Shown: positions 6,978 to 56,478, counted from the stretch's first letter. The stretch: 64,000 nucleotides of DNA from Fistulifera solaris (GCA_030295235.1 AP026162.1:1736001-1800000), one strand, 5' to 3'. A program made the numbers and translations. Notes: generated from the sequence alone by a model not told the origin.

Positions 6978-8385
6978 TCAGTTACAATATCTACACCTTA
7001 GCGATCTTTGCCAAAAGAAGCCGCTATCGCTCAGTATTCGCGATGATTCCATATTGTTGTTGCTGGACAACTTGGGTACGAAGCGCACGGTCCCTGGTAT
7101 GCTACCTTCTTTCAAAATTTCGTTCCATCCCTGTTCCTCACAACCATTCACTCCGGACCAATCAAAGGAAAGTTCGATAACCGATGCTTGGGAAGGATAC
7201 GTATCAAGAAGCCATTTCACCACTCCTTCATTCTGATCCTCAGAAAGTGAACACGTTGAATACACCAAATGCCCCCCTTTCTTCAACAACCGAAAACCGT
7301 TCGACAATAGAGACCGCTGCAAGTCAACAAGTCTACGGAGTTCTTCTTCATCTGTCAACACAGGAATAGAAAGTGACTCGGATGTCTCTGGTTTTGTCGT
7401 ACCGACAAAAACACCGGCTTGCTTTGCCAGTTGTCTCCGAACGTGCTTGAGCGAACCGTCGGTGCTACATTCAACGTCGACAAGGACACGGTCAAAAAGC
7501 TTAACTGGAACATGACTCAGCGAACTCTCTCCGGCTTGACTCGCTTGACGATCCACGTCGACTAGTTCCTTAAGTCGCTTTCGTTCTCGTCCTTTCGCAC
7601 TCCTGTTTCGACGCTTTCGTCCTTCATCATGAAGGCGTTGTTCCATGCACACAGACGAATCAAATATCAAGTTGGTTGGTTCGGACCCAAACATAGTGCC
7701 ATCATTGTTGTATAGTCGAATCCGTATGCTCTTTCCTTCTTTGCTGCCAATATAGGGAACGACTTGATGCTTCTCGATAATTTTCCGGCATGTCGACAAA
7801 CGAGATTCTGAACAGTCAACACCAATCACCGTAGCTTCCTCGGAATTATCCGAAAGAACATTTTTCCGTAAGTAGTCTGAAATGGCACATAGTTTTAAAC
7901 CAGGGGCACAGCACAAGTCAAGGATCCTCAAAGGTACCTGGGGTGAATCGTTGCCCTTAATACGATCGCAGTGCGTAGACAATAATGCGGCAACGGCTGC
8001 TCCGGAGCTGACCTCCTGTCCATATATTCTCCCTTCTTTGTAACAAGATGATTGTGACAGTCGAAAATCCCCCGGTAGTGAATAGAAACCAAAACTCTTG
8101 TGCAACCACGAAATCGGATGGGGATATTTGGAGTCTGGTGGCAGTTCCGTCTATCGAGAAGGAAAGAGTGAATGTGAGAAGCTCTTGCAGCTTCATCGTA
8201 TAGGTTATCAAATGACTCACCTGGAGAAGTTTGAGCGTCTCGTCACCATCAAAGGCAGGATTCAGTCGGATATGCCGGTCGGCAAGGACGAGTTTCTCCT
8301 TTAACAGATCGTTTACATCAATGCCAAATTGTGCATAGTAAGCTCTTAGCTTTGCCGCGTGATCCGCCGTTTGTGGCTCGGACAT
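6978..8385 (-). CDS. NOL1/NOP2/Sun (RsmB/RsmF-like) RNA m5C methyltransferase
   Basis: ILDLCCAPGLK, FDRVLVDVECSTDG, LVYSTCSL..QNEGVV. Intron 8151-8220. Confidence 0.9.
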
Positions 8386-24608: not shown

Positions 24609-25842
24609 ATGGAAGAATTAGCTTTCCTTGAGAATGCTTCGGCGTCTTTCGTTGATCTGGAGATGAGCGGACCTCCGGCCAATCCTCTTCCGTTTGGACG
24701 AGCCACAACTGGAAGAGCGGAACGTGTAGATGCCATGGTTTTAAATCCTGTAACAGGAGAACATCTTGAGGTATCGAATATAATTTACGAAAGGCATCCA
24801 GATCGACGTCCTCCAGACCGAGCGTATTGGGTTGGTCGGAAACTGAAGAAATGCATCTTCGGCGTCGTCAAAGAGTGCACTTTATTACGCTTTCGCAACG
24901 ACGCTCTCGTTCCATGGGAAGTCACGTCTGGTAAAGCGGCTGTTAAGATTATGTCTTGGCAAAGATACGAGAACTGCAACACATCGAAGATCCAATTAAG
25001 GAAGTTTCGGCTATGCAGTATATTAGTGAAGGAGGTCAACACCCGCATGTTATGGGTGTGTTGGATGTACTCAAAGACGAGGAGTATCTGTTATTATTTA
25101 TGCCATTCTGTTCATCAGGCGATTTATTTGGTTTTGTTCAGCAAGCAGGTCGTTTTCCTGAGCCAATGGCTAGATACTGGTTTATGCAAATTCTTGAGGT
25201 GAGTGACCGGGATATTATTTTAGTTTTCTTTGCCACTAGCGCCGTCGCTTACATAGTTTATTTATCGTGATCAAACAGGGACTCACACATTTACAGAAAA
25301 AGGGTGTTTGTCATCGTGACATGTCTTTAGAAAATATTTTGGTTGATGAATACAGAACAGCTGTTGTTATTGATCTTGGAATGTGCTTAAGGGTGCCTTA
25401 TGATGACGGAGAAACTGGAGGCGTTGCGGACGTTTCAGCGGGGACTCTTCGTCGTCTAATTAATCCTCTGATACCATGCGGCAAACCCAACTATATATCA
25501 CCGGAAGTTTTGAAGAGCGAGGTACCGTTCGATGGATTTGCAATAGATTTGTGGGCAACGGCTGTGATGTTATTTATAATGCTGGTAGGCCTTCCACCAT
25601 GGGAATTTGCACGCGAGGAAGATCCCCGTTTCCGAATGGTGGCAAGGGGTGGATTAGAACGCATGCTCCGCTCTTGGAATCGTGAAATTAGTCCATTGGC
25701 GGCCGATTTACTACAAAAAATGCTGCGGGAAGACCCTAGGCAGCGGTTATCATTAGAAGAGGTAAAGGTACACCCGTGGGTTCTTTACGAGGGAGGTGGC
25801 GCGGTTCCGCAAGCTCCTGGTCATGAAGAGTGGCGTGGTTAA
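24609..25842 (+). CDS. Ser/Thr protein kinase (CAMK-like), paralogue 1
   Basis: AAVKIM, HRDMSLENIL, IDLGM, CGKPNYISPE, DLWA, R..L.EV..HPW. Intron ~25199-25278; indel ~24960. Confidence 0.92.
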
Positions 25843-26798: not shown

Positions 26799-28096
26799 AT
26801 GGACTTGTATTATAACAATGTCCGCACACTGAGTGAGGAAGAGCTCCAGCAAGCGTTTCTTCAGAATGCATCGGTCTCGTATTCCATCCTTGAATGCATC
26901 CGCCCAGCAAGCCAATGAAGTTCGAACCAGCTTGCGTGGGAGAGGCAGAAAGGGTGGATGCACAAGTGCTGAATCCACACACGGGAGAAATATTACACGT
27001 ATCGAATATTGTTTACGAAAAACGCCATGATGGATTGCCCCTCAACGCGCCTACGGTGTGGGCAGAAAATTGATGGAAGCCATTTACGGCTGTATTCGAA
27101 TCTGCACCATTTTTGAAATCCGCAATGATATGCAAGTGCCTTTTGCTGTCACCGAAATGAAAGCTGCCGTCAAAGTTCTTTCGTGGGAAAAGATCCGGTC
27201 GTTAAATCATGCGGAAAATCCCATCAATGAAGTGGCTGCCTTACAACATGTCAGCCAGAACCCGCACGAGAATGTCATGAGCGCGCTGGACATATTACAA
27301 GACGAGGAATACCTTTTGATTTTCATGCCCTACTATTCTTCGGGAAGTTTATATGATTTTGTTTCACGAGCTGGGCATTTTCCCGAGCGCGTGGCGAGGT
27401 ATTGGTTCACTCAAATTTTGGAGGTACGAGCAAGGCCTTTATAATATGTGTGTCATGTCGAAAGCAGCTTCTGAACAGAACAATCATTTTTCTTTCCGTT
27501 CGCAGGGTTTATCGCATTTGCAGAGGCTTGGTATATGTCACCGCGACCTATCTTTAGAGAACATATGCATCGATGACTATACGAATTCAGCGATCATCGA
27601 TTTGGGCATGTGTTTGCGCATTCCCTACATCAATGAGAGCTCAGGAGGTGATGTGGATGTCACGGCCGGAACATTACGGAGACTCATGACAGCGGCTGGA
27701 ACGTGCGGGAAAATTTGGTACATGTCTCCTGAAATTATTCGCAACGACGACATGTTCGATGGGTTTGCGGTGGATCTTTGGGGCGCCGCTATTATTTTGT
27801 TTATAATGTTGACGGGCAGGCCACCCTGGCCTTTTGCTAGTCGACAGGCTGCTGAATTCCGCGTTGTTGCAATCGATCCAGTTCCCGATTATCCCAATGA
27901 AAATTATGGCATTGGTCGGCTTTTACGAGAAATGGGTAAAGAAATATCACAACAGGCGTCTGATCTACTGCAAAGAATGTTACGAAACAATCCACGCGAG
28001 CGACTTTCTCTTCTTGAAATTTTGCAGCACCCTTGGCTTCAAGAGGAGTCGGAGCATGAACCAATGGCAGATCCGGACGATGAATGGAGAAGATGA
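26799..28096 (+). CDS. Ser/Thr protein kinase (CAMK-like), paralogue 2; 5' part frameshifted
   Basis: AAVKVL, HRDLSLENI, IDLGMCLRIPY, CGKIWYMSPE. Same intron position (QILE|GL) as paralogue 1. Confidence 0.88.
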
Positions 28097-34394: not shown

Positions 34395-35061
34395 CTTTCA
34401 CGCTTCAAAATAAGTAAATGTTAGCTTCGTAGGTCAATGGCGAGTCGATCGCTTTGTGTCTTTGATTTTTGTTAATAGCAACAGCTGTCACCAATAGTTT
34501 TCCACAATAATAAGATCGTTGTCCTTCTGACTCGTTGACACCCCGTCATACCAGGTACCTTCGGCTTTTGACGACGTGCGTGTTAAACTCGTAAGGCGTG
34601 AATGAAGTGTCCGGGACTGCTACATCGCCCTACTATAAAGTAGCCTGAAGTCTTATCGGTAATTGTTACCTATTGCCAATAAAGTCACTATGCTTTGTCA
34701 TGTAGGGATCACGACTTTAATGACTCAATGCGTCAAGCGCTGTGTGTTTTCGGTTGCATGCTTCGAAACCGTTCCTCTTCGTTGTTCCGCGTTGCGGCTG
34801 TTTTGTTACAAGTGTTCATAAGAACAAGTTACTCGTAGCTCGTAGTATTGTGGTCAACTCTGCATTTTGTGATTCGAAGAAAAGGATTTTGCAAGCGTCC
34901 ATTAAAGCTTGCAAGGCCGTTCTTGATTTTACTACTTAGCAATCAATTAAAAGGGGCCCGTGGTAAAAGCATCATTACCCCGGACTTCGATCGTTTACAG
35001 CCGGCGTTCCCTTTGACTACTCTTCGTTCACGAAGTCTTCTTGCATTAATTTGGAGCGACC

Positions 35062-38000
35062 ATGTCAAAGCCACGGCCTATTCCTCTGACGCGTCCCTTA
35101 CGGTCGACACCGGACGAAGCGGAGCCATCCTTTTCGTTCGAAGAAGAGTCGTATTTGTCGAACCGAGCTGTCGACTTTGAAGACGATTTTCACCGTCGTT
35201 TGACGGGCACTCGTCGCGAAGAAAGTGGTGGGAGCAGCTTCTGGAGAGCGTCGAGTGTGAATAGTGTCGCCGCTACTCCTTCTTTCAATAGTGTTCATCT
35301 TCGGGGGAAAAGCGATGTGAATGTGAAAGAACGAAAAGCAAACGTGATACCGGCCCCACCAACGCCACAGCCGGTTGCGAGAATGTCGAGCGCCGAAAGT
35401 CTAACCGGAAATAGTAATGTACGTATTTCAGTCGGGTTGAGTTGGTTCTGTAAATGACGCTCACTTGTTTACTTCTTTCTTATTATTTTTTCTCTTTGCA
35501 GTGGCCGGATCGACGAGATTCTAGTCTGTCCGCAAATTCATCTACCTCTCAAAAGCACAAGAAAGATGTCACACGACAGAGAGCTGCGGATCGACGTTTG
35601 AAATTGGATGCTCAGGGTTCAACGCTAGACGCGGGGCACATCATCGACAATGACGCTAGCTTCTCGTTTCAGCTTCCGAACTTTGCGCAAATGGTCCATG
35701 CAACCAGCCTCGATCGGTCGTCGAGTGATCAGTCGACTGGTTCGCTGCTTTATGGAAAATCTCCGGGTGGGACATTTATTGGAAAGTCCTCGTCGCTCAT
35801 ATTTCCAACCGGTCTCAATACGAATGGCGACAATGACAATGAAGCAGCAAAGGCAAAAAGACGCAGAATTAATCTGGCGCTCGATCAATGTGAGGCTGTA
35901 CGATTTCCATTCAAGAAGAAACTCATCTTGACGAATCTAGATCTCTCGGCTGCTGACATACCGTTGAAGGACTTGTGCGGAACATCGTTGGGCAATACAT
36001 TGTATAAGTTATCTCTTTCAGGAAATAGACTCGGAACGGTCCCCGCGCGCTTGGTACAAAACCTACCTGTACTGAAGCATCTTGATCTTTCGCAATGCGA
36101 ATTGAGTCAGCTGCCGGAAAAATGGAACCTTCCTAAGCTGTCGCAACTCAATTTAAGCCACAACGGCTTTACTGAGTTTCCCGATGAGGTAAGCAATTTG
36201 AGGAAATCTAACGTTTTTGGTTTTTTTTGCTTCAACCTAACTCATCCACAATATTGCAATAGATGATACTCGCTGGGCTTCCCGAGCTGCAGGAGCTGAA
36301 TATGTACGCTAATAAAGTTTCAGAAATTATCATACCTGCAAACCCGAAATTACTGTCCAAGCTAGAAAAGCTTGACCTTGGATACAACGATCTTGTAAGC
36401 ATACCACCAGAGCTTGACCAGCTGAAATCATTGAAGGTCCTTCGCGTCATGAACAACTTTTTAGCGAAAGTTCCAATGCGCGTTTGTGAAATGGACTTGA
36501 AAAGCATTGATGTTTCTAGTAACCCGATTACAGAACCGCCTGCGGAAACATGCGAGCGCGGTATCTGTTCAATGAGAAGATATTGGCATTGTATCCGCAT
36601 GGAAGAACAATCAAAGCAAAAGGCCATAGAAGAGGCATCTAAGAAAGTACAAAAACAATCGAAGAAACGAGAAACCAAAAAGAAGTACGGTGGGCTTGGT
36701 TTAATGTTTCAGGGGAAATCGAAAGCAAAAGTCCCGGAGAGCGATTCTTCTGTGCATTCGCATACTTCGCCGTCCGTTATTCAACGAAAGCAGATAGAAT
36801 CTTCCGCGTCCTTTCGATTGGAGGATGAGTCTCCGTCTAAGTCTACGTTGGGGATGGTCAGTGACGAAAACATTGAAGGAGCAAATAACGACACCTCAAC
36901 TGACAAGGCCACATTCAGCGCATCTGATGTTGGTAAAGAGGAGCTTGAAGAACAAGATCGTGTTACTGTTAATGACACGCTGAAGGTTATCTTTGTTGGT
37001 AAGTAATGGGATTGTACGATGAATGTTTTTTCGCGTTTTCTTTGCTAATCGTACGGTTACGATTTTAGGCATGGCCATGGCAGGCAAAACATCGATGATA
37101 AAGCGCTTGATTGAGGGGACAGATGCCATTGTTCCTACACGGGACGAACGCACAATTGGGGTCGATATTTATCAGTGGAATCCAAAGGATGATGCTCGTT
37201 TTGAGCACATTGATTCTCGCATCGAATTTCAAGATCAAGAGTTGTCTCAAACATGTGGTGATGTTGACGTAAAATTTAGTGTCTGGGATTTCGCAGGTGT
37301 GTAAAACTATCCGAAAGCTGAACACAATTTAAATATTTCAAGCTGTTTCGCTGACTCCACTTACTCAAACTAACGATTACAGGTCAACACGTATACCATG
37401 CAACTCACGAGCTTTTCTTCTCATCAAGAGCTCTATATGTTCTTGTGTGGGATATGGGTGTGGGCAACCCTGCTACACAGAAAAGTCAGAAAGCTGTCAA
37501 CGACAGCGGTGCCTTTTCATTATACGACTCTGACGAAGAGGACGACGAAGACGATATTAGAGCAGAAGAAGAAGCTCGTCGTGCTGATAGAGCTTTGGAG
37601 CACGATATCGACGAAAAGGTTCAATTCTGGATTGACTCTATACAATCATCGGCTCCTGGGGCAGCTATTCTTCCTGTGGCTTCATTTGCTGATTATTTCG
37701 GAAATGAGTTAGAACACGAGGCGAAGCGTCGTTGTAGTATCCTAAAACAGCGCCTATTAAAGCACGAAGAAAGAAGAATCAAAGGTCTGAAGGAGCGCTA
37801 CAAAGATTACATCGACCAAAACCGTGCAGACGATCCGGCTGCGATTCGCTTGCGCAAATTACTTTGTCCTTTTATCAGACCGAAACTAATTTTTGGAGAC
37901 AACGATGACAACAGTGTTGTTCGCGTAAGCGGGACGAAGTATACTGGCTTTGATGTTTTGACTGAGAGAATTATCAGTATTGCAACAGGGCGCTATAAGG

Positions 38001-40493
38001 TACAAAAGTTTCCTATTTTTCACGGTCATGTTGGTGCCAGAATCCCTCGGATGCGCTTGGAAGTTCGAGAAGAAGTACGAAAAATGCGTGAAAAGTTTAA
38101 GGTTGTTGAATGGGGCCATTTCGTTAACACCCTCAAGGATCGCGGTTTGACGAATATTGAAGACATAAGTGATGCTTTGCACTTTTTGACGAATACGGGT
38201 GAACTCTCTTACTTTGGCTCTGTGATGACAACCAAAGCATTACCATGCAGTACCGGGACAAGTCCTCAACGCGAAGAAATAGATCGCAGTGATCAGGATG
38301 ATGACAATTACGATGATGATGCTTTACTGTCGATGGACGATACAAGTATCACCGCTCCGATTACAGAGGATGGTTCTTTGACCACGATAGAAGATTACAT
38401 GTCAAATGGTCTATCGCAGTTCGTCTTTTGAATCCTAGATGGCTAGTCGCTGCTGTCGCTTGCATTCTTCGTCATGATCTTGACCGCGAAATCAAAGAAA
38501 CACGACGCCAACTGATGTCGACAGAGGAAGGAGGGTGGTCAAAGAACTCAAACTTTTATGAAGCACATTTGAATTGCCCCGTCATTACTGACGAGGACGC
38601 TTGTATGTTGTGGAAGGCGAAGCGAATAACCAAATTAGCTGCAAAGAAGGCCGAAGAGTATTCCCATGACATGACAGTCACCCCATTTGAATTTCTCCAG
38701 CTTCTTCTCATCCGTTTCGGTGTATTCGTGCCCATCGACTTGACGATTGACAAGGCATTGTTGGGCGGCAAGGAGTACTCTAGATGCGCTGATACATTAT
38801 GTCCCGTTGAACAAGTCCTTGATACGACCCCTTTGGAAATTATTACGACGATAGATCATGGCGATAGCCCAAAGTCAAAATTTTTCTTCCTGCCGAGTCT
38901 ACTAGGACCGTGCGAACCCGCAGATGCATGGACGTACAAGACTACCGACTCGTGGAAGACCACTTTATGTCACTCTGTTCTTTTCCCCGATGGTATCCCT
39001 CCTGGTCTCATGGAACGACTTACTGCTAATGTTCTCAGCTCAATTTATGCCGCCACAAGAAATACTGATGCAAGCTCAAAGGCAACGCTGACACAGCAAG
39101 GCTTGGCAACTTGCGAAGGGCAAATGTCCGTAAAGAAATATTGTGCTGGCGCACGGCTTTCTACATTAAACTAGGAACACTGATCACAGCAAGTGACGGA
39201 ACGAAAACAGAAAGTGTGGTAGAAATCTTCACTCATCTTGCCGACAGGGATTCCCATCTCTGCGTTGGAGCGGATGACATGGCCGTCGGAATGCGTCGTC
39301 TTATAACAAGTGGAAGAGGTCAAGTTGGAGACGGTGGTAGAAAGATTTGGAAGGGAGGTTATTTGCTTGTATGTAAATGCATCCAGCGAGTCATGGAAGC
39401 ATATGGCGGTCTAGAATTCGAAAAGCAAGGATTTTGCCCAGAATGCTTGGCGAAAAAGTCTATTGGAGAGGCGAGCTCTTGGGATCATACTGCAATAAGA
39501 GCTGCGGTAAGAGATTCCGAGTCGACGCTTCGATGTCATCATGGCCATCGCGTCGACACACGATTTGTTGCCGGACCTGTTGATTCTTTCCTTAAAACGA
39601 ATCAGGATCTTATGGTTAAAACGGTGGATGCAGTCGATACAGTCGTCCCAGTGAAAGACATTTTACCAGCTGTTGTGGTGGTAGGTCTTTGGGATGGGAA
39701 AAGTCGAAAGGTTGTCAGAGTAGGCTCAGGATTCATTGTTGACAAAAAGCGAGGTTTGATTGTCACCGCAAGTCACACGCTAATTAACATTTGGGGAGAT
39801 AAGAATTACCCATATGGCGAAAACTATTACGGTCTACCACAAGGTAAAGTCGTGATCGGTGTCATCCCAGACAAGGATTCAGAGGAATGGAACGGAAAGG
39901 ATCTTGCAGTGTTTCGCTACTTTGCTAAAATCGTGGCGAAAGACCCTCGTTTGGATCACGGGGAATGTCATTTGGATGCTTGTGTTCTTCGCATAACCAC
40001 TCGCTTGGAGAATGACGTCGACGGCAACGGAGATGGATGTGGTGACCAACCCGAAATTCTTCTTTTGAATAACGACAAGGCGATGAAGAAGGAGCAGCTT
40101 CGATCTCTCAAAGTGACCGAAAAGTGCGAGATAGAAGAGCAAGTTCGAATTGTTGGGTATAATCAAGGAGGCAATGGTCTTTTAGGACCAGGAGAGAGTT
40201 TGAATAGATGTGTCGACTTTGCTCGGGGTTATATATGCATGAAATTTACACACGACGATCTAGAATCGGGAACGTTTAGCAATAGCGGGCGTCGAGACCG
40301 CTTCAAACCTAAAGAAGAAGTTGTAGTGATTTGCCCAACAATCGGAGGGCACAGTGGAGGCCCATGTGTGAACCAACAAGGCGAGGTTATTGGAATTCTA
40401 AGTAGGGCAGACCCAGCTGAAAGCCAGCGATGCTACATCTCTCCTGCGCATGAATGGAAGCACCTGGTAAAAGAAGCGAAAAGCAAGATGTAA
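35062..40493 (+). CDS. Roco protein: LRR - Roc GTPase - COR - trypsin-like serine protease
   Basis: LRRs: LSLSGNRL, LDLSQCEL, LDLGYNDL. Roc: VIFVG|MAMAGKTS, RTIGVDI, VWDFAG|QHVYHATHELFF. COR: NPRWL, FFLPSLL, PPGLMERL. Protease: GSGFIV, TASH, DACVL, GHSGGP. Introns 35419-35501, 36189-36262, 36999-37068, 37297-37382; indels ~38425 and ~39135. Confidence 0.9.
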
Positions 40494-40656
40494 ATCAAGT
40501 TTACTTTAGATCATTACTTTTGTTCAATCTTCCCGTTGTCGTTCGTCACCCTCTTCTAGAGTCCTTAGCTCGACACCAGATAAAACTAAAGAGCCTCGTG
40601 CTCCGTAAATATATTCTCTGGAGAACGCCTTTACTTCGAATGGCCATTGCAACCTA

Positions 40657-41297: not shown

Positions 41298-42624
41298 TGT
41301 GAGAAAGGATGATCTATCATAGGATGTCCTTCAGAGAAGCATACTCACTTAAATTCTTTCACCATGTATGAACCCGCACTCTCCCCATAATAATCCCCTC
41401 GAGCATCACCGACCCACCGCCTGCTTTCTCGAGATTGCGTTTTTGGGCTAAAATCGATAATAATATACGTCACTTTAGAATGAGGCAACGAATACGATAT
41501 CCTACATCATGTTTCTAATTTTGCAGACTTACGGAACCGCATAGCATTCCACAAGGGACAAAGTAGCGAGCAGAAAAATAACGGTGAATGTGATACGTCG
41601 ACATTCCATTTTTCGAGGAATTAAAGCTTGAACCTAGGACAAAAACGAATAAGAAATCAGGGAGCTCAAGCGAAGGATCAGCAATATTATACAATGACAG
41701 GTCGTCCTTCTTCCTCCAGCAAGTTGTTAGAAGATAATAAATGCTTTTCCTCAATACCAGGTAATATTTGAAGCAACACTCACTCGCGCAATAAACATAC
41801 GCTTGGCCTTGGCTGCATTTTTTTGTTTTCCTTTAGTGTGCACTATCAAGTAAAGTGTACAACTACCGTGATTTAACTTCAGTCCCGGGATTAATTCCCA
41901 CTATTCAAAACTCCGTACTTGTATCTATGAATGATTTGAAGGGACATACTTACTTTTGTGACTGACTTTTGACAAGCTATAAAGCGTGTATGATTTTATT
42001 GGTACAAATATTGCTTCTACGGTGGCTGCTGAATTCATTTACGTTGAGAATCTTGCAAGAGTCGTGACTACTACTCAACTTGAAGGCAATCCCGACAAGT
42101 CGAAACAAATATTCGTGATAAAGTTAATTCGTCACCAAAAGATATAACTTATCAGTGAAAGGGAATAGCTTGGTTTCGATAGAGTAGCTGACGGTTTGAA
42201 AGATGAAGATCTTACTAGTGCCTCTAGAGTCGAGACTAGAGCATTATTATTCTACAAGGGATAGGGATCATATTGTAAAAACGACCATTGCTCTTGACAG
42301 GAAATAATGCCGCGCCAAATTTGTTGTCCGAGAAAAGTTTTGTGTACACTTCCAGACGCGGTAACTGCAAGCCAGCCTGGTCTACTATCTAACGAGCAGT
42401 AGCCGGAAAAGACCCAATGAGTCTTGACTATGGGTCGTTTACACTCATTCTTGTCAAGTGCGACACGAACGATACGTTTTCGACTAAAGGGATTTAAGTA
42501 TTAAGGTACTGGCGGGATTCAACGAGCGGTTGTGTTTCATTTTTTCTTCAAACTTGTCACAATTTCAAAGAAAGCAAACATCACAACAACAGTGGAATCA
42601 GAGTTTCCCAGGTCAAGTCAATCA

Positions 42625-44141
42625 ATGATGCCAGGAAGTAAGCAATGGTGGCTTTTTGTTCTTGCGTTGGTCAGCGCAACATGCTTTGCCAGAACAGCCG
42701 AAGTAACTGACCGAACAGAAGCCGCAGACCGAAGTGCAGCCCTGAGACGAAGTCTCATGATCCACGACATGTACCATGATTTAAGTATGAGTTTGAGCAT
42801 GAGTATGAGCATGAAATATGCTAAAGGAAAGAAGTCGAAGAAATCGAAAGGTAGCAAGAGCAGCAAAGGAAAAGGAGCTCCTTCAAAGTCTGTGAAAGGC
42901 AAGGGTAAAGAGCCACCGGTGGAGTCTCCAAAAGGCAAGGGAAAAGAGACTTCTCCAGAATCTACGAAAGGAAAGGGGAAAGGAACCGCTTCAGAGTCTA
43001 CAAAAGGAAAAGGAAAAGGAAAAGGAACCACTTCAGAGTCTACAAAAGGAAAGGGTACCAGCTCAAAGAAGTCGAAAGGAAAAGGAAAAGGTGCAGCGCC
43101 CACACCAGACGGTAAGCAATCCTTTGTGACTTGCGACACGCACTATCTGCTTGGTAAATTCTGACTTTTGTTTATTCCGCAGTTGCTCCATCGCCGACAG
43201 CAAGCATTGCGCCCAATGCACCTTCGGCGCCTTCAGCACCATCTGCCCCATCTCCATCTGTACCTACGGCAACACCTCCTACTCCACCCACAGCGGGAGA
43301 TATTGGAATCGTTCTCGAGCCTTACGACGTCCTTTATACAATTGAGCAAACGAGAATTCCCAACCAGGCGGATTATCGAGGCGTGACAGAACTCACTCAA
43401 GCTTACCTTGATGGATTCTTTGCCGGGGTACTAGATTTGTCAACCGACATCATGTTCTCTTCCAGTACAACGACCAACACAGACAGAACATTCCGCCTTG
43501 GTCAACCTGTCAGGGTGGAATACAACACTACGATCTTTTTGTCATCTCTATCCTCGGTGGTCCCTGGTGAGGATGAATTAAATGCACTACTCATGAGCGC
43601 ATTTCAGCAACAAAATGCCGAATACCTCGAAGCTGTCCAGGGTTTGTCTCGTGTCAACATCTTTTCAACGACAACTACCGCTGAATTTGTCGAATCGACC
43701 CGCACCGATGAAATGGAAAATGAGGCCGAGGGTTCCGACAGTTCCGAGGGAGACTCATCGTCAACACCTGTCGGTATGATTTCCGCAGCGGCAGCTGGTG
43801 CAATGGTTCTGTTTGCCACCGGATACGTTGCCTACCGTCGAAGCATTTCAGAGGATGAGCCAGCAGGCAAGTTCTTTGACCAAGATGGCCATGTTACAGT
43901 GGCAGGAGAGACCTATACCGGAGATACGTATACTGGGGCTTCATGCATGGATTCACACTCTGGAGCGGGAAATACACATTCTTATTCTCCTCGTAATTGG
44001 GACGAGACATCAGAATATATGCAGGAAGCCGGCTTACATATACCGACTTTACAAGAGACCCCTTTTGAAGATATACCTGTTGACGACGATGATGATTACT
44101 CCGAAGAAACTTGTGAAAGTTACGACTACGTGCAGCCGTAG
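42625..44141 (+). CDS. Type-I membrane protein A: signal peptide, RXL, Lys/Gly/Ser-rich block, Pro-rich linker, lumenal domain, TM, acidic tail
   Basis: RRSL, MSLSMSMSM, repeated ESTKGKGK. Intron 43112-43182 splices in frame. TM ISAAAAGAMVLFATGYVAY-RR. Confidence 0.8.
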
Positions 44142-54808: not shown

Positions 54809-56478
54809 TTATCCTAGCCAAGCTACTAATTCGTCATGACGTGGCACATGACTTAGATCGCTTCCAACTGACGCTAAGCAAGGAGGCTTCTCGAGTGCCT
54901 TTTGAGCAACTTGCCTCAAATCTTCCTTCGTCACCGCGTCGATCTTTTTACAGGTCACATTCATATTTTCTCGTTGCCCATACGTCAACACCTGTCGCCC
55001 CATATCTTCAAATAGTACCAGTCGAGACTCCAATTGCGTCAAGACGTTGCATTTGAGCATGTTTCGTGCACGATCCAGCTCCTCGTCGCTAACATGATTG
55101 ACTGCCAGCTGCGCCAAATGGTGGGTAAAAACTTGTACCATGTTACGGGCGTTTTCTGGCATCGTCGAGCCAGAAATCCCCCAAATGCCTGATTCGCTAT
55201 GAAAAGCAGTGTAAGCTTCCGCACTCTCTGCCCAACCAAACTGATTCAAAACCCGGCGATATAGGCGACTGTACATGCCTTTACCCGGTCCTCCGGCAGA
55301 AAATGAGGAACCTCCGCCCAACAGCGTCTGTAACACACAAGTAGCAACTAATGCGTCAGAATGCCAGCCTCCAACTTCAAACCCTACACCTATGCGCACA
55401 AGACCATCGACCGTAGGGCGTTCCACTCGTTTTTCACCTCCTCGGTACTGGGATGGTTTTACAACGCTGCGTCCCTCGTCCTTTTGTTTCCAAATGCCCA
55501 AATAATTCATCTGCTTTATTAACTAGAAAGTCGTGTCGAATACCAGCTCCGCCTATCGCCAAGCCTTTTGGATTTTGAACAAACTGCCGCTGCCAGTAGC
55601 CGTGAACTGTGTCGGCAGATAGCTCAGCGAGTGCTTCTGTGGGACAGAAATGCGGTTGACCTAATTGTTGATTTCCCCCGTACGCTGCTTCTTGCAGAGC
55701 CTCGCTCAGTAACAACTCCGGCATCATGTCCATGGCTTGAAAACCAAGTGCCATCTTGGCATCTTCTACTTCCTCTGGCAAAAACCTTGCTTCCAGCAGA
55801 ACCTCTTTGAGCAAATCCAGCGCATTCTCTACGTTAGGTCGCAACAAATCAATACAGTGTAAGGACTGTTCCCGACCCGTCGACACAAAGCGTTGACCTC
55901 CCCAATCCTGCAACAAAGTATTCACTTGGGGTCCCATATACTTGTTCGTGGCCCCAAAGGCTAAAACTTCGAGCAAATTCGTTACCCCCGTTTCACCCGG
56001 ACGTTCGAGGCGACTCCCGACCTCACAGACGGCACCAATCGTGCTGACTTGACCGTATGTTTCTTGAGAAACCACCCGAATGCCATTATCCAGTGTCGTT
56101 ACTACAGTTTCAGGAACTTCCAATTGATCGGCCGGAAAATTGGGAGGAATGGAGGCGGGAACTTCGTTCGTAATCGCATAAGCTGAACTGAGTTTTGTGT
56201 TCAGTTTTTGCGCTGCTCCGATCGGATCTCCTCGATCTGCTGCGGACTTAATGCTTGCGCATCATCGAAACGATCCTCTGACAACCGACGAGCTGGCCAC
56301 GAGCGAGGGGTTTTCTCGACGTCCTTAGCTTTCGTGCGTTTGATCTCTGGAGGTTCTTTCGCTAAAGGGTATTCATACACACTGTAGGAGCTCGCACAAC
56401 GCTTTGATCGAACTACCCGGGCAGCAAAGGTCGACGCCTCGAAAGCTTACGAAAGGCCACGAGGCTGTGAGAAGACAT
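54809..56478 (-). CDS. PMPCA: Mitochondrial processing peptidase alpha subunit (M16B), frameshifted
   Basis: TTLDNGIRVVSQE, GSRLE, glycine-rich loop LLGGGSSFSAGGPGKGMYSRLY, LESR.V.FED.GRQVL; Arg-rich presequence. Confidence 0.92.

Follow-up and report, generated by a model that had tools for sequence, protein, structure and literature searches.

The 64,000-nucleotide stretch of the Fistulifera solaris genome analyzed here (GCA_030295235.1 AP026162.1:1736001-1800000; the window) contains, at positions 35062-40493 on the plus strand, a single gene of five exons whose 1706-residue product joins a Roco GTPase to a serine protease. From the N- to the C-terminus, the protein comprises a disordered N-terminus, approximately seven leucine-rich repeats (LRRs), a Roc GTPase domain, the COR-A and COR-B domains, a conserved Cys3-His metal site, and, on a flexible linker, a serine protease of the HtrA-like S1C type, S1C being the MEROPS subfamily name for HtrA/Deg-type proteases. 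A sequence-only reading of this DNA had proposed that LRRs, Roc, COR, a metal site, and a trypsin-fold protease are united in one gene, which was borne out by Pfam matches, sequence motifs, and the gene model. This identity and architecture are considered nearly certain, and the fuller explanation, in which the protease would in addition be gated by the nucleotide state of the GTPase, is given a little better than an even chance.

Gene Structure and Splicing

As recorded, the region is divided into seven consecutive stop-to-stop frames, whose Pfam matches are, in order, LRR_8, LRR_4, Roc, COR-A, and Trypsin_2. When four introns are removed and one base is added at each of two frame-break sites, the spliced coding sequence amounts to 5121 nt and forms one open reading frame (ORF) of 1706 codons. 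All four introns are of the GT..AG type, and each was seen as a joint in contigs of the public runs X3 and X4; none of these joints was seen in contigs of runs X1 or X2. The X3 and X4 contigs lack exactly the four intron intervals, as expected of mRNA-derived reads, and both runs were taken as cDNA-like solely on the strength of these spliced joints.

Exon 1 (35062-35418) begins with an ATG at 35062, with an in-frame stop upstream, and encodes a Ser/Pro/Arg-rich N-terminus in which no Pfam family was detected at E up to 5; the alignment of the Mayamaea homologue P0012 begins at 35059. It is followed by intron 1 (35419-35501, 83 nt, GTACGT..TTGCAG; joint 35418>35502 in one contig of X3 and two of X4) and by exon 2 (35502-36188), which carries the rest of the variable N-terminus and the first LRRs (starting at ~35907; Pfam LRR_8, 2.9e-10). 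Beyond intron 2 (36189-36262, 74 nt, GTAAGC..CAATAG; joint in one contig each of X3 and X4), exon 3 (36263-36998) encodes further LRRs (to ~36568; Pfam LRR_4, 1.5e-10), a Lys/Ser-rich linker, and the start of Roc (~36974). The last two introns, both of phase 1 and both with joints in X3 and X4, flank exon 4 (37069-37296), which holds the P-loop, the switch I Thr, and the DFAG motif: intron 3 (36999-37068, 70 nt) interrupts the first Gly codon of the P-loop, and intron 4 (37297-37382, 86 nt) the Gly codon of DFAG. Exon 5 (37383-40493) encodes the remainder of Roc, COR-A, COR-B, the metal site, the linker, and the protease up to the stop, all in one frame given the two missing bases. All these features lie on the plus strand.

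Many database entries of 250-790 residues hold the C-terminal part alone, as would be seen if the Roco and the protease were two adjacent genes or transcripts, fused in appearance only. These short entries, however, begin inside the long last exon (P0002 at 37439), as ORF-based calls on intron-containing DNA would; they are C-terminal fragments or calls of this kind, and the named ones come from diatoms. Moreover, once the missing bases are allowed for, the sequence runs from COR-B to the protease without a stop codon or an intron, and contigs of X3 and X4 span this junction (38995-39563) and fill 30 of the 30 bins of the gene. By searching for longer proteins with the C-terminal piece, 217 matches were obtained; all of the 120 best listed carry Trypsin_2, which in 114 stands alongside Roc and/or COR-A. 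Two transcriptome ORFs marked 'complete', P0080 and P0081 (1912 and 1795 residues), hold LRR, Roc, COR, and Trypsin_2 together. The two-gene explanation is regarded as extremely improbable, and the placement of the protease in the Roco gene by the sequence-only reading stands.

The highest hydrophobic windows of the product fall inside the folded cores of COR-B and the protease, and no signal peptide or transmembrane span was seen, because of which the 1706-residue protein is most likely cytosolic.

Integrity of the Reading Frame

The gene is intact in the organism, and errors in the assembly consensus most likely account for the two frameshifts of the window record. This record does contain the two indels noticed earlier at ~38425 and ~39135, each being a one-base deletion in a homopolymer run: at 38425-38426 one T has been lost from a T-run, and at 39131-39132 one base is missing that appears as A or G in reads. 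The gene is considered intact because contigs of three runs bearing the same organism label as the window (X1, X3, and X4) carry the missing base at both breaks. A T inserted behind 38425 is present at the full depth of X1 (29.2 of 29.2), X3 (27 of 27), and X4 (43.3 of 43.3); behind 39131, an inserted A or G (two alleles) accounts for 18.8+22.2 of 41, 117.1 of 117.1, and 263.7+142.5 of 406.2, respectively. The extra base is also held by contigs in which no other letter differs from the window (records 15 and 23). In addition, the homologue P0002 (1032 residues, 81-93% identical by segment) is continuous at the first break and aligns across both without loss of residues, switching frame at 38425-38428 and 39132-39138, and the 453 codons after the second break are stop-free and 93% identical to it.

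The same observations argue against a real pseudogene, in which both deletions would be genomic and the protein truncated after COR-A. What speaks for a pseudogene is the presence of both deletions in the window record and the partial depth of the inserted base in X2, a wetland metagenome run (10.1+11 of 36.1 at the first break and 13.6+8.3 of 31.1 at the second), which leaves 15.0 and 9.2, respectively, showing no inserted base and otherwise unaccounted for. Taken together, a pseudogene is very unlikely.

Two sequence forms of the gene, 6-9% apart, were observed in runs X1-X4 over window positions 35000-40600, which suggests that the organism is very heterozygous or has two subgenomes. In contig pairs with identical ends, one member shows 0 differences from the window and the other 16-25; both forms have the frame-restoring base, which at the second break is A in one form and G in the other. 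The second form is probably represented by P0001 and P0002 (93-94% identical), and an odd joint inside intron 1 in X1 (35425>35489, skipping 63, TT..TT, side 30) was taken as a length difference of the second haplotype.

The Roco Core

Judged from profile and model matches to LRRK1, LRRK2, and prokaryotic Roc-COR proteins, the protein is a member of the Roco family (LRR-Roc-COR) that carries no kinase. Its LRRs lie at roughly residues 255-450, where LRR cores complement the two Pfam matches, and its Roc domain scores 30.9 bits with PF08477 against a cut-off of 27. The P-loop GMAMAGKT occupies residues 594-601 (Lys600 at 37086-37088) and DFAG residues 667-670, with DFAGQ extending to 671. Across 48 full-length family members (alignment A2), the G1, switch I Thr, and G3 columns expected of a Roc domain are conserved in 41-48 sequences; column by column, G53 is kept in 47/48, K59 in 41/48, T81 in 40/48, D131 and G134 in 48/48, and Q135 in 38/48. 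The C-terminal part of Roc (37385-37744) contains a helical insertion of acidic character together with a G4 of the Roco type, VASFAD, which aligns with the VGTHLD region of LRRK1 in a weak single-sequence match (E 0.12).

The profile built from the 48 sequences matches LRRK2 at ~1e-26, with Roc as the best stretch, LRRK1 at 4e-23, and the Chlorobium tepidum Roco (6hlu) at 8.5e-19. An AlphaFold2 model of the homologue P0042 from Roc to the C-terminus (1171 residues; predicted local distance difference test (pLDDT) 78.2, predicted template modeling score 0.71) was compared with known structures by Foldseek, which returned LRRK1 8e05 (6e-18) and LRRK2 8fo9 as the best matches, besides C. tepidum 3dpu/6hlu and Methanosarcina barkeri 4wnr. 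The model aligns with LRRK1, LRRK2, and the Roc-COR tandem 3dpu over ~830-990 columns. COR-A (37745-38425) is delimited by a Pfam match (PF16095, 2e-4, below the cut-off) and by the alignments of this model to LRRK1, LRRK2, and the C. tepidum Roco, and COR-B (38426-39392) by its Roc-COR structural alignments and a conservation of 0.60. The presence of COR directly after Roc is seen both in this model and in the family member P0172, whose COR-A match, at 37.6 bits, exceeds the cut-off.

The acidic Roc insertion, located between G3 and G4 (window 37440-37700), is conserved and forms a long helix in the homologue model. A second long helix follows G4 in this model, which differs from the compact Roc of LRRK2.

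The Cys3-His Module and the Protease

The C-terminal piece (window 39132-40490) was modeled with a pLDDT of 90.1, and its conservation was assessed in an alignment of 46 diverse members (A1). Residues 1-90 of the model form the end of COR-B, and residues 99-147 form a small alpha/beta module (pLDDT ~87-96). The latter belongs to a putative Zn module (39393-39587) with the pattern CxxC...Cx3H, made up of Cys1355, Cys1358, Cys1388, and His1392, the four columns of which are kept in 39, 37, 42, and 40 of the 46 sequences and are invariant in 48/48 full-length members. No Pfam family was detected at E up to 5 in the stretch that covers the COR-B end and this module (39132-39650). The segment between the module and the protease (39588-39668) is read as a flexible tether because of its low pLDDT (<50 at model residues 153-166) and low conservation (mean identity 0.25).

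The protease domain (39669-40490) matches Pfam Trypsin_2 (PF13365) at 2.5e-14 and contains the putative triad His1468 (39774-39776), Asp1535 (39975-39977), and Ser1661 (40353-40355). The motifs pointed out by the sequence-only reading, namely CPEC (at 1355) and CHHGH (at 1388) for the metal site and TASH, DACVL, and GHSGGP for the triad, are all found in the spliced product, and the triad is complete and lies within a confidently modeled HtrA-like chymotrypsin fold with the His-Asp-Ser order. Sequence profiles relate the domain to HTRA1 (4e-12) as well as HTRA2 and DegP/Q/S. For the model, Foldseek retrieved Rv3671c, Deg2, DegP, DegS, and HtrA1, and VIA-align gave Deg1 with Z 22.9 (root-mean-square deviation 2.3 over 195 residues) and DegS with Z 22.8, DegQ and HtrA3 falling within Z 21-23. 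The ESM Atlas returned just generic bacterial/viral Trypsin_2 clusters (0.90-0.91) and nothing specific. No PDZ domain appeared in a Pfam scan at E up to 0.1, the protein ending with the terminal helix of the protease domain. By these comparisons the domain is HtrA-like, and because a PDZ domain is absent, the protein is not placed in the HtrA family in the full sense.

Catalysis is a prediction from sequence, and inactive trypsin-fold paralogues, such as the scabies mite SMIPPs and haptoglobin, occur among the structural neighbors, so that the domain could be a pseudoprotease or structural binding module and the whole protein a scaffold. Such an interpretation is opposed by the conservation of the triad, which among the 46 sequences is retained at the His position in 45, at the Asp in 46, and at the Ser in 45, together with the GHSGGP oxyanion-hole motif; the 48 full-length sequences show no variation at Asp1005 and almost none at His936 and Ser1126. 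A catalytically inactive domain is therefore held to be highly improbable, and a candidate active protease is preferred.

Four further cysteines of the protease domain, at residues 1537, 1654, 1665, and 1687 (in DAC, VICP, GGPC, and RCY), are kept in 38-41 of the 46 members and could form a second metal site or redox-sensitive pairs.

Conservation and Distribution among Diatoms

Among 22 orthologues, mean pairwise identity is 0.61 for the LRRs, 0.68 for Roc, 0.57 for COR-A, 0.60 for COR-B, 0.56 for the metal module, and 0.66 for the protease, as against 0.30 for the N-terminus, 0.21 for the LRR-Roc linker in exon 3, and 0.25 for the linker before the protease. The architecture is expressed and ancient within diatoms, and all of its folded parts are under purifying selection. 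Among the matches listed, the named longer homologues are all from diatoms (Mayamaea, Epithemia, Nitzschia, Cylindrotheca, Pseudo-nitzschia, Thalassiosira, Skeletonema, and an Odontella transcriptome), with one orthologue per named species and otherwise distant paralogues. On this comparative basis, the window gene is a diatom orthologue within a family that has few copies and is conserved in pennate as well as centric diatoms; occurrence outside diatoms is taken from a single published survey (PMC11378527).

The search for 50%-identity representatives yielded 344 with E values of 1e-3 or lower, of which 180 lie at 1e-30 or below. Most of them match query residues ~22-472, which indicates that the protease moves as a unit with the metal module and the end of COR-B. 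When 32 distant long representatives were examined with Pfam, Trypsin_2 was present in 32/32, Roc and/or COR-A in 22, WWE in 7 (5 of which also have U-box), and LRRs in 1. Distant members with a named source are paralogues from diatoms (Epithemia P0211, Pseudo-nitzschia P0235, and Leptocylindrus P0172). In a tree of the shared core (48 sequences of A2, FastTree, midpoint rooted), the five WWE/U-box proteins group together in one clade (support 1.0), and a second clade is made up of the LRR-type orthologues from pennate and centric diatoms.

In the WWE/U-box relatives (P0147, P0160, P0166, P0191, and P0201), a WWE pair and a U-box replace the LRRs ahead of the Roc-COR-Cys3His-protease core, and two other relatives have WWE only (P0161 and P0224). 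By their domain content, these relatives would link the module to ADP-ribose and ubiquitin signaling.

The biological role of the protein may be approached from the same data. It has been suggested, by analogy with protease-fused proteins of the NLR (nucleotide-binding leucine-rich repeat) and STAND (signal transduction ATPases with numerous domains) types, that such a gene could be a one-gene switch of innate immunity or programmed cell death, in which the LRRs would sense a pathogen or damage ligand, Roc-COR would oligomerize, and the protease would execute. The sensor-NTPase-effector layout is real, and the WWE and U-box head on the same core recalls NLR-like sensor swapping. In addition, an immune-receptor role has been proposed for brown-algal LRR-ROCO genes (PMC3341825, PMC11378527), and Roc-like GTPases with COR are described in bacterial conflict systems (PMC7159879, eLife 2020). 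On the other hand, conservation of the LRRs equals that of the enzymatic domains (0.61 versus 0.57-0.68), a single orthologue was found per named species among the matches listed, and the brown-algal survey gives at most four ROCO copies for each non-brown species of the stramenopile-alveolate-rhizarian (SAR) group, diatoms, oomycetes, and Schizochytrium included (PMC11378527). Such conservation at low copy number points to a conserved ligand or partner, which fits better than a diversifying pathogen receptor engaged in an arms race, and an immune switch is judged unlikely. Mechanistically it coincides in part with the favored nucleotide-gated protease, from which only its biological role sets it apart, and a sensor that is itself conserved and detects a conserved danger signal is possible.

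Survey of Prokaryotic Genomes

The genomes of 185,579 prokaryotic species were surveyed by pattern-based scans, which need near-exact peptide patterns and are hence insensitive. The single-protein scan gave 38 pattern matches and no relatives among them, and the scan with alignment A3 gave 29 pattern matches, including one relative, which is not a Roco. This is a 523-residue ORF on a contig of a Gammaproteobacteria metagenome-assembled genome (L001:7224-8795, plus strand), 35% identical over the whole protease domain, family-specific insertions included, and devoid of Roc, COR, and the metal module. The surrounding stretch is a eukaryote-derived island or a chimeric contig and lends no support to a bacterial origin of the fusion. 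An absence of Roco-proteases from prokaryotes is weakly supported.

The ORF adjoins another that consists of 12 ubiquitin repeats (L001:10113-13310, minus strand), and the GC content of the contig drops from ~0.62 to 0.46 at approximately position 7000.

Proposed Mechanism and Significance

In the favored explanation, the LRRs would bind a conserved cellular ligand or partner, and Roc, in which the P-loop Lys, the switch I Thr, and DxxGQ are kept, would cycle between nucleotide states. The nucleotide state would alter the COR-mediated oligomeric or conformational state, as described for the C. tepidum Roco and LRRK2; in a Roco review, nucleotide-dependent cycling between monomer and dimer is reported as shown for the C. 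tepidum protein (PMC6337361). This change may in turn gate the tethered protease, whether protease domains are brought into proximity or an autoinhibited arrangement is released, and proteolysis of substrates would be the output of the switch. For the gating of the protease by Roc-COR, which is proposed by analogy, the chances are regarded as even.

Several points weigh against this explanation. GTP binding, oligomerization, proteolysis, and the coupling of the three are predicted, largely by analogy. The canonical NKxD form of G4 is absent from the 48 sequences, which have a Roco-like xSFxD instead; the COR-A match of the window piece reaches 21.7 bits where the Pfam cut-off is 35.3, and COR-B (38428-39132) corresponds to no Pfam family at E up to 5. 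Since HtrA proteases normally assemble as trimers and carry PDZ domains, an HtrA-style regulation cannot be taken for granted in a protein without PDZ. At the level of the gene, the X2 depth that shows no inserted base leaves room for a frameshifted allele in some population, and the library type of the runs with spliced contigs is not on record. A homodimer prediction for two copies of the C-terminal piece (window 39132-40490), made without alignment or controls, scored 0.00 and gives no evidence either way.

A broader and rather doubtful extension is that Roc-COR-Cys3His-protease may constitute a nucleotide-gated executioner module of ochrophyte algae with interchangeable heads (LRRs, WWE plus U-box, and, in a third group, unknown N-termini). 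It would then represent a third class of Roco effector beside the kinase and death-domain classes, and might act as a sense-switch-cleave device in the cell-fate decisions of diatoms under stress or infection. To our knowledge, the executioner proteases of diatoms are poorly defined, and a conserved, expressed, and probably cytosolic protease in both pennate and centric diatoms is a candidate for signaling or cell-fate proteolysis, the gene of which is open to knock-out in transformable diatoms. Moreover, how Roc-COR transfers the nucleotide state to the output domain is still debated for LRRK2, the Parkinson's protein, and a Roco with a protease output may offer peptide cleavage as an independent and easily assayed read-out of the same Roc-COR switch.

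Other Features of the Window

The window is eukaryotic nuclear DNA with a GC content of ~0.44-0.52 and short GT..AG introns. Ordinary nuclear genes flank the Roco gene, including those for an rRNA methyltransferase, protein kinases, an RNase PH-like protein, aminopeptidase P, ArsA/GET3, and an M16 peptidase. Possible tandem kinase genes are two nearby ORFs at 25240-25842 and 27320-28096 (+), in each of which a protein kinase domain is represented by its C-terminal half. The ORF at 42505-43164 (+) has a signal-peptide-like start followed by Lys/Gly/Ser-rich repeats of the KGKGK type, a composition that we take to recall diatom biosilica-associated proteins. On the minus strand, a gene resembling the alpha subunit of the mitochondrial processing peptidase (54809-56261) lies in two frames overlapping by 89 nt, which align to consecutive parts of 7jrg_B (residues 63-282 and 291-497); another one-base assembly error or a short intron could account for the split.

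Comparison with Known Systems

The LRR-Roc-COR-protease design is already in print, where it has been catalogued and left uncharacterized. A survey of brown-algal ROCOs (Front Plant Sci 2024, PMC11378527) lists three 'group 3' genes with an extra C-terminal peptidase domain (IPR009003) and notes C-terminal-peptidase ROCOs in brown algae and other SAR organisms. The sequence-only reading knew of no characterized example, and this stands: no functional study of a Roco-protease was found in the full-text literature, subscription-only papers being outside that scope, and the words 'protease' and 'peptidase' have 0 occurrences in the Roco review (PMC6337361). In the searchable literature, no description was found of the protease as HtrA-like, of the Cys3-His module with its invariant residues, or of the WWE/U-box sister clade.

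Among characterized proteins, LRRK2 and LRRK1 likewise place an LRR-Roc-COR core directly before a catalytic output domain. In these proteins, however, the output is a kinase followed by WD40, and armadillo/ankyrin repeats are present, whereas the diatom protein has a serine protease and neither repeat; the acidic helical Roc insertions and the Cys3-His module after COR-B are found in the diatom protein only. The Rocos of C. tepidum (6hlu, 3dpu) and M. barkeri (Roco2, 4wnr) share the minimal LRR-Roc-COR layout and lack an enzymatic output domain. For the protease, the closest relatives in sequence and fold are the HtrA/Deg proteins (DegS, DegP, DegQ, plant Deg1, and HTRA1-3), which have the same His-Asp-Ser order and GxSGGP motif; the diatom domain differs from them in having no PDZ, in being fused behind a GTPase module, and in carrying four conserved cysteines as well as insertions specific to the family. 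Bacterial STAND/NLR-like conflict proteins, for which an eLife study of 2020 is said to describe trypsin-like effectors, share the logic by which a repeat sensor is combined with an NTPase switch and an effector. No NACHT or NB-ARC family was detected in the Pfam scan, and the layout is analogous only, the diatom protein being a eukaryotic, conserved, low-copy protein with a Roc small GTPase in place of a STAND ATPase. Compared by description, the group 3 ROCOs are treated in the accessible text of the survey as a domain record, without protease type, metal site, triad, WWE/U-box paralogues, or function (PMC11378527), and they share with the diatom protein an LRR-ROC-COR core, a C-terminal PA-clan peptidase, and a small number of copies per species.

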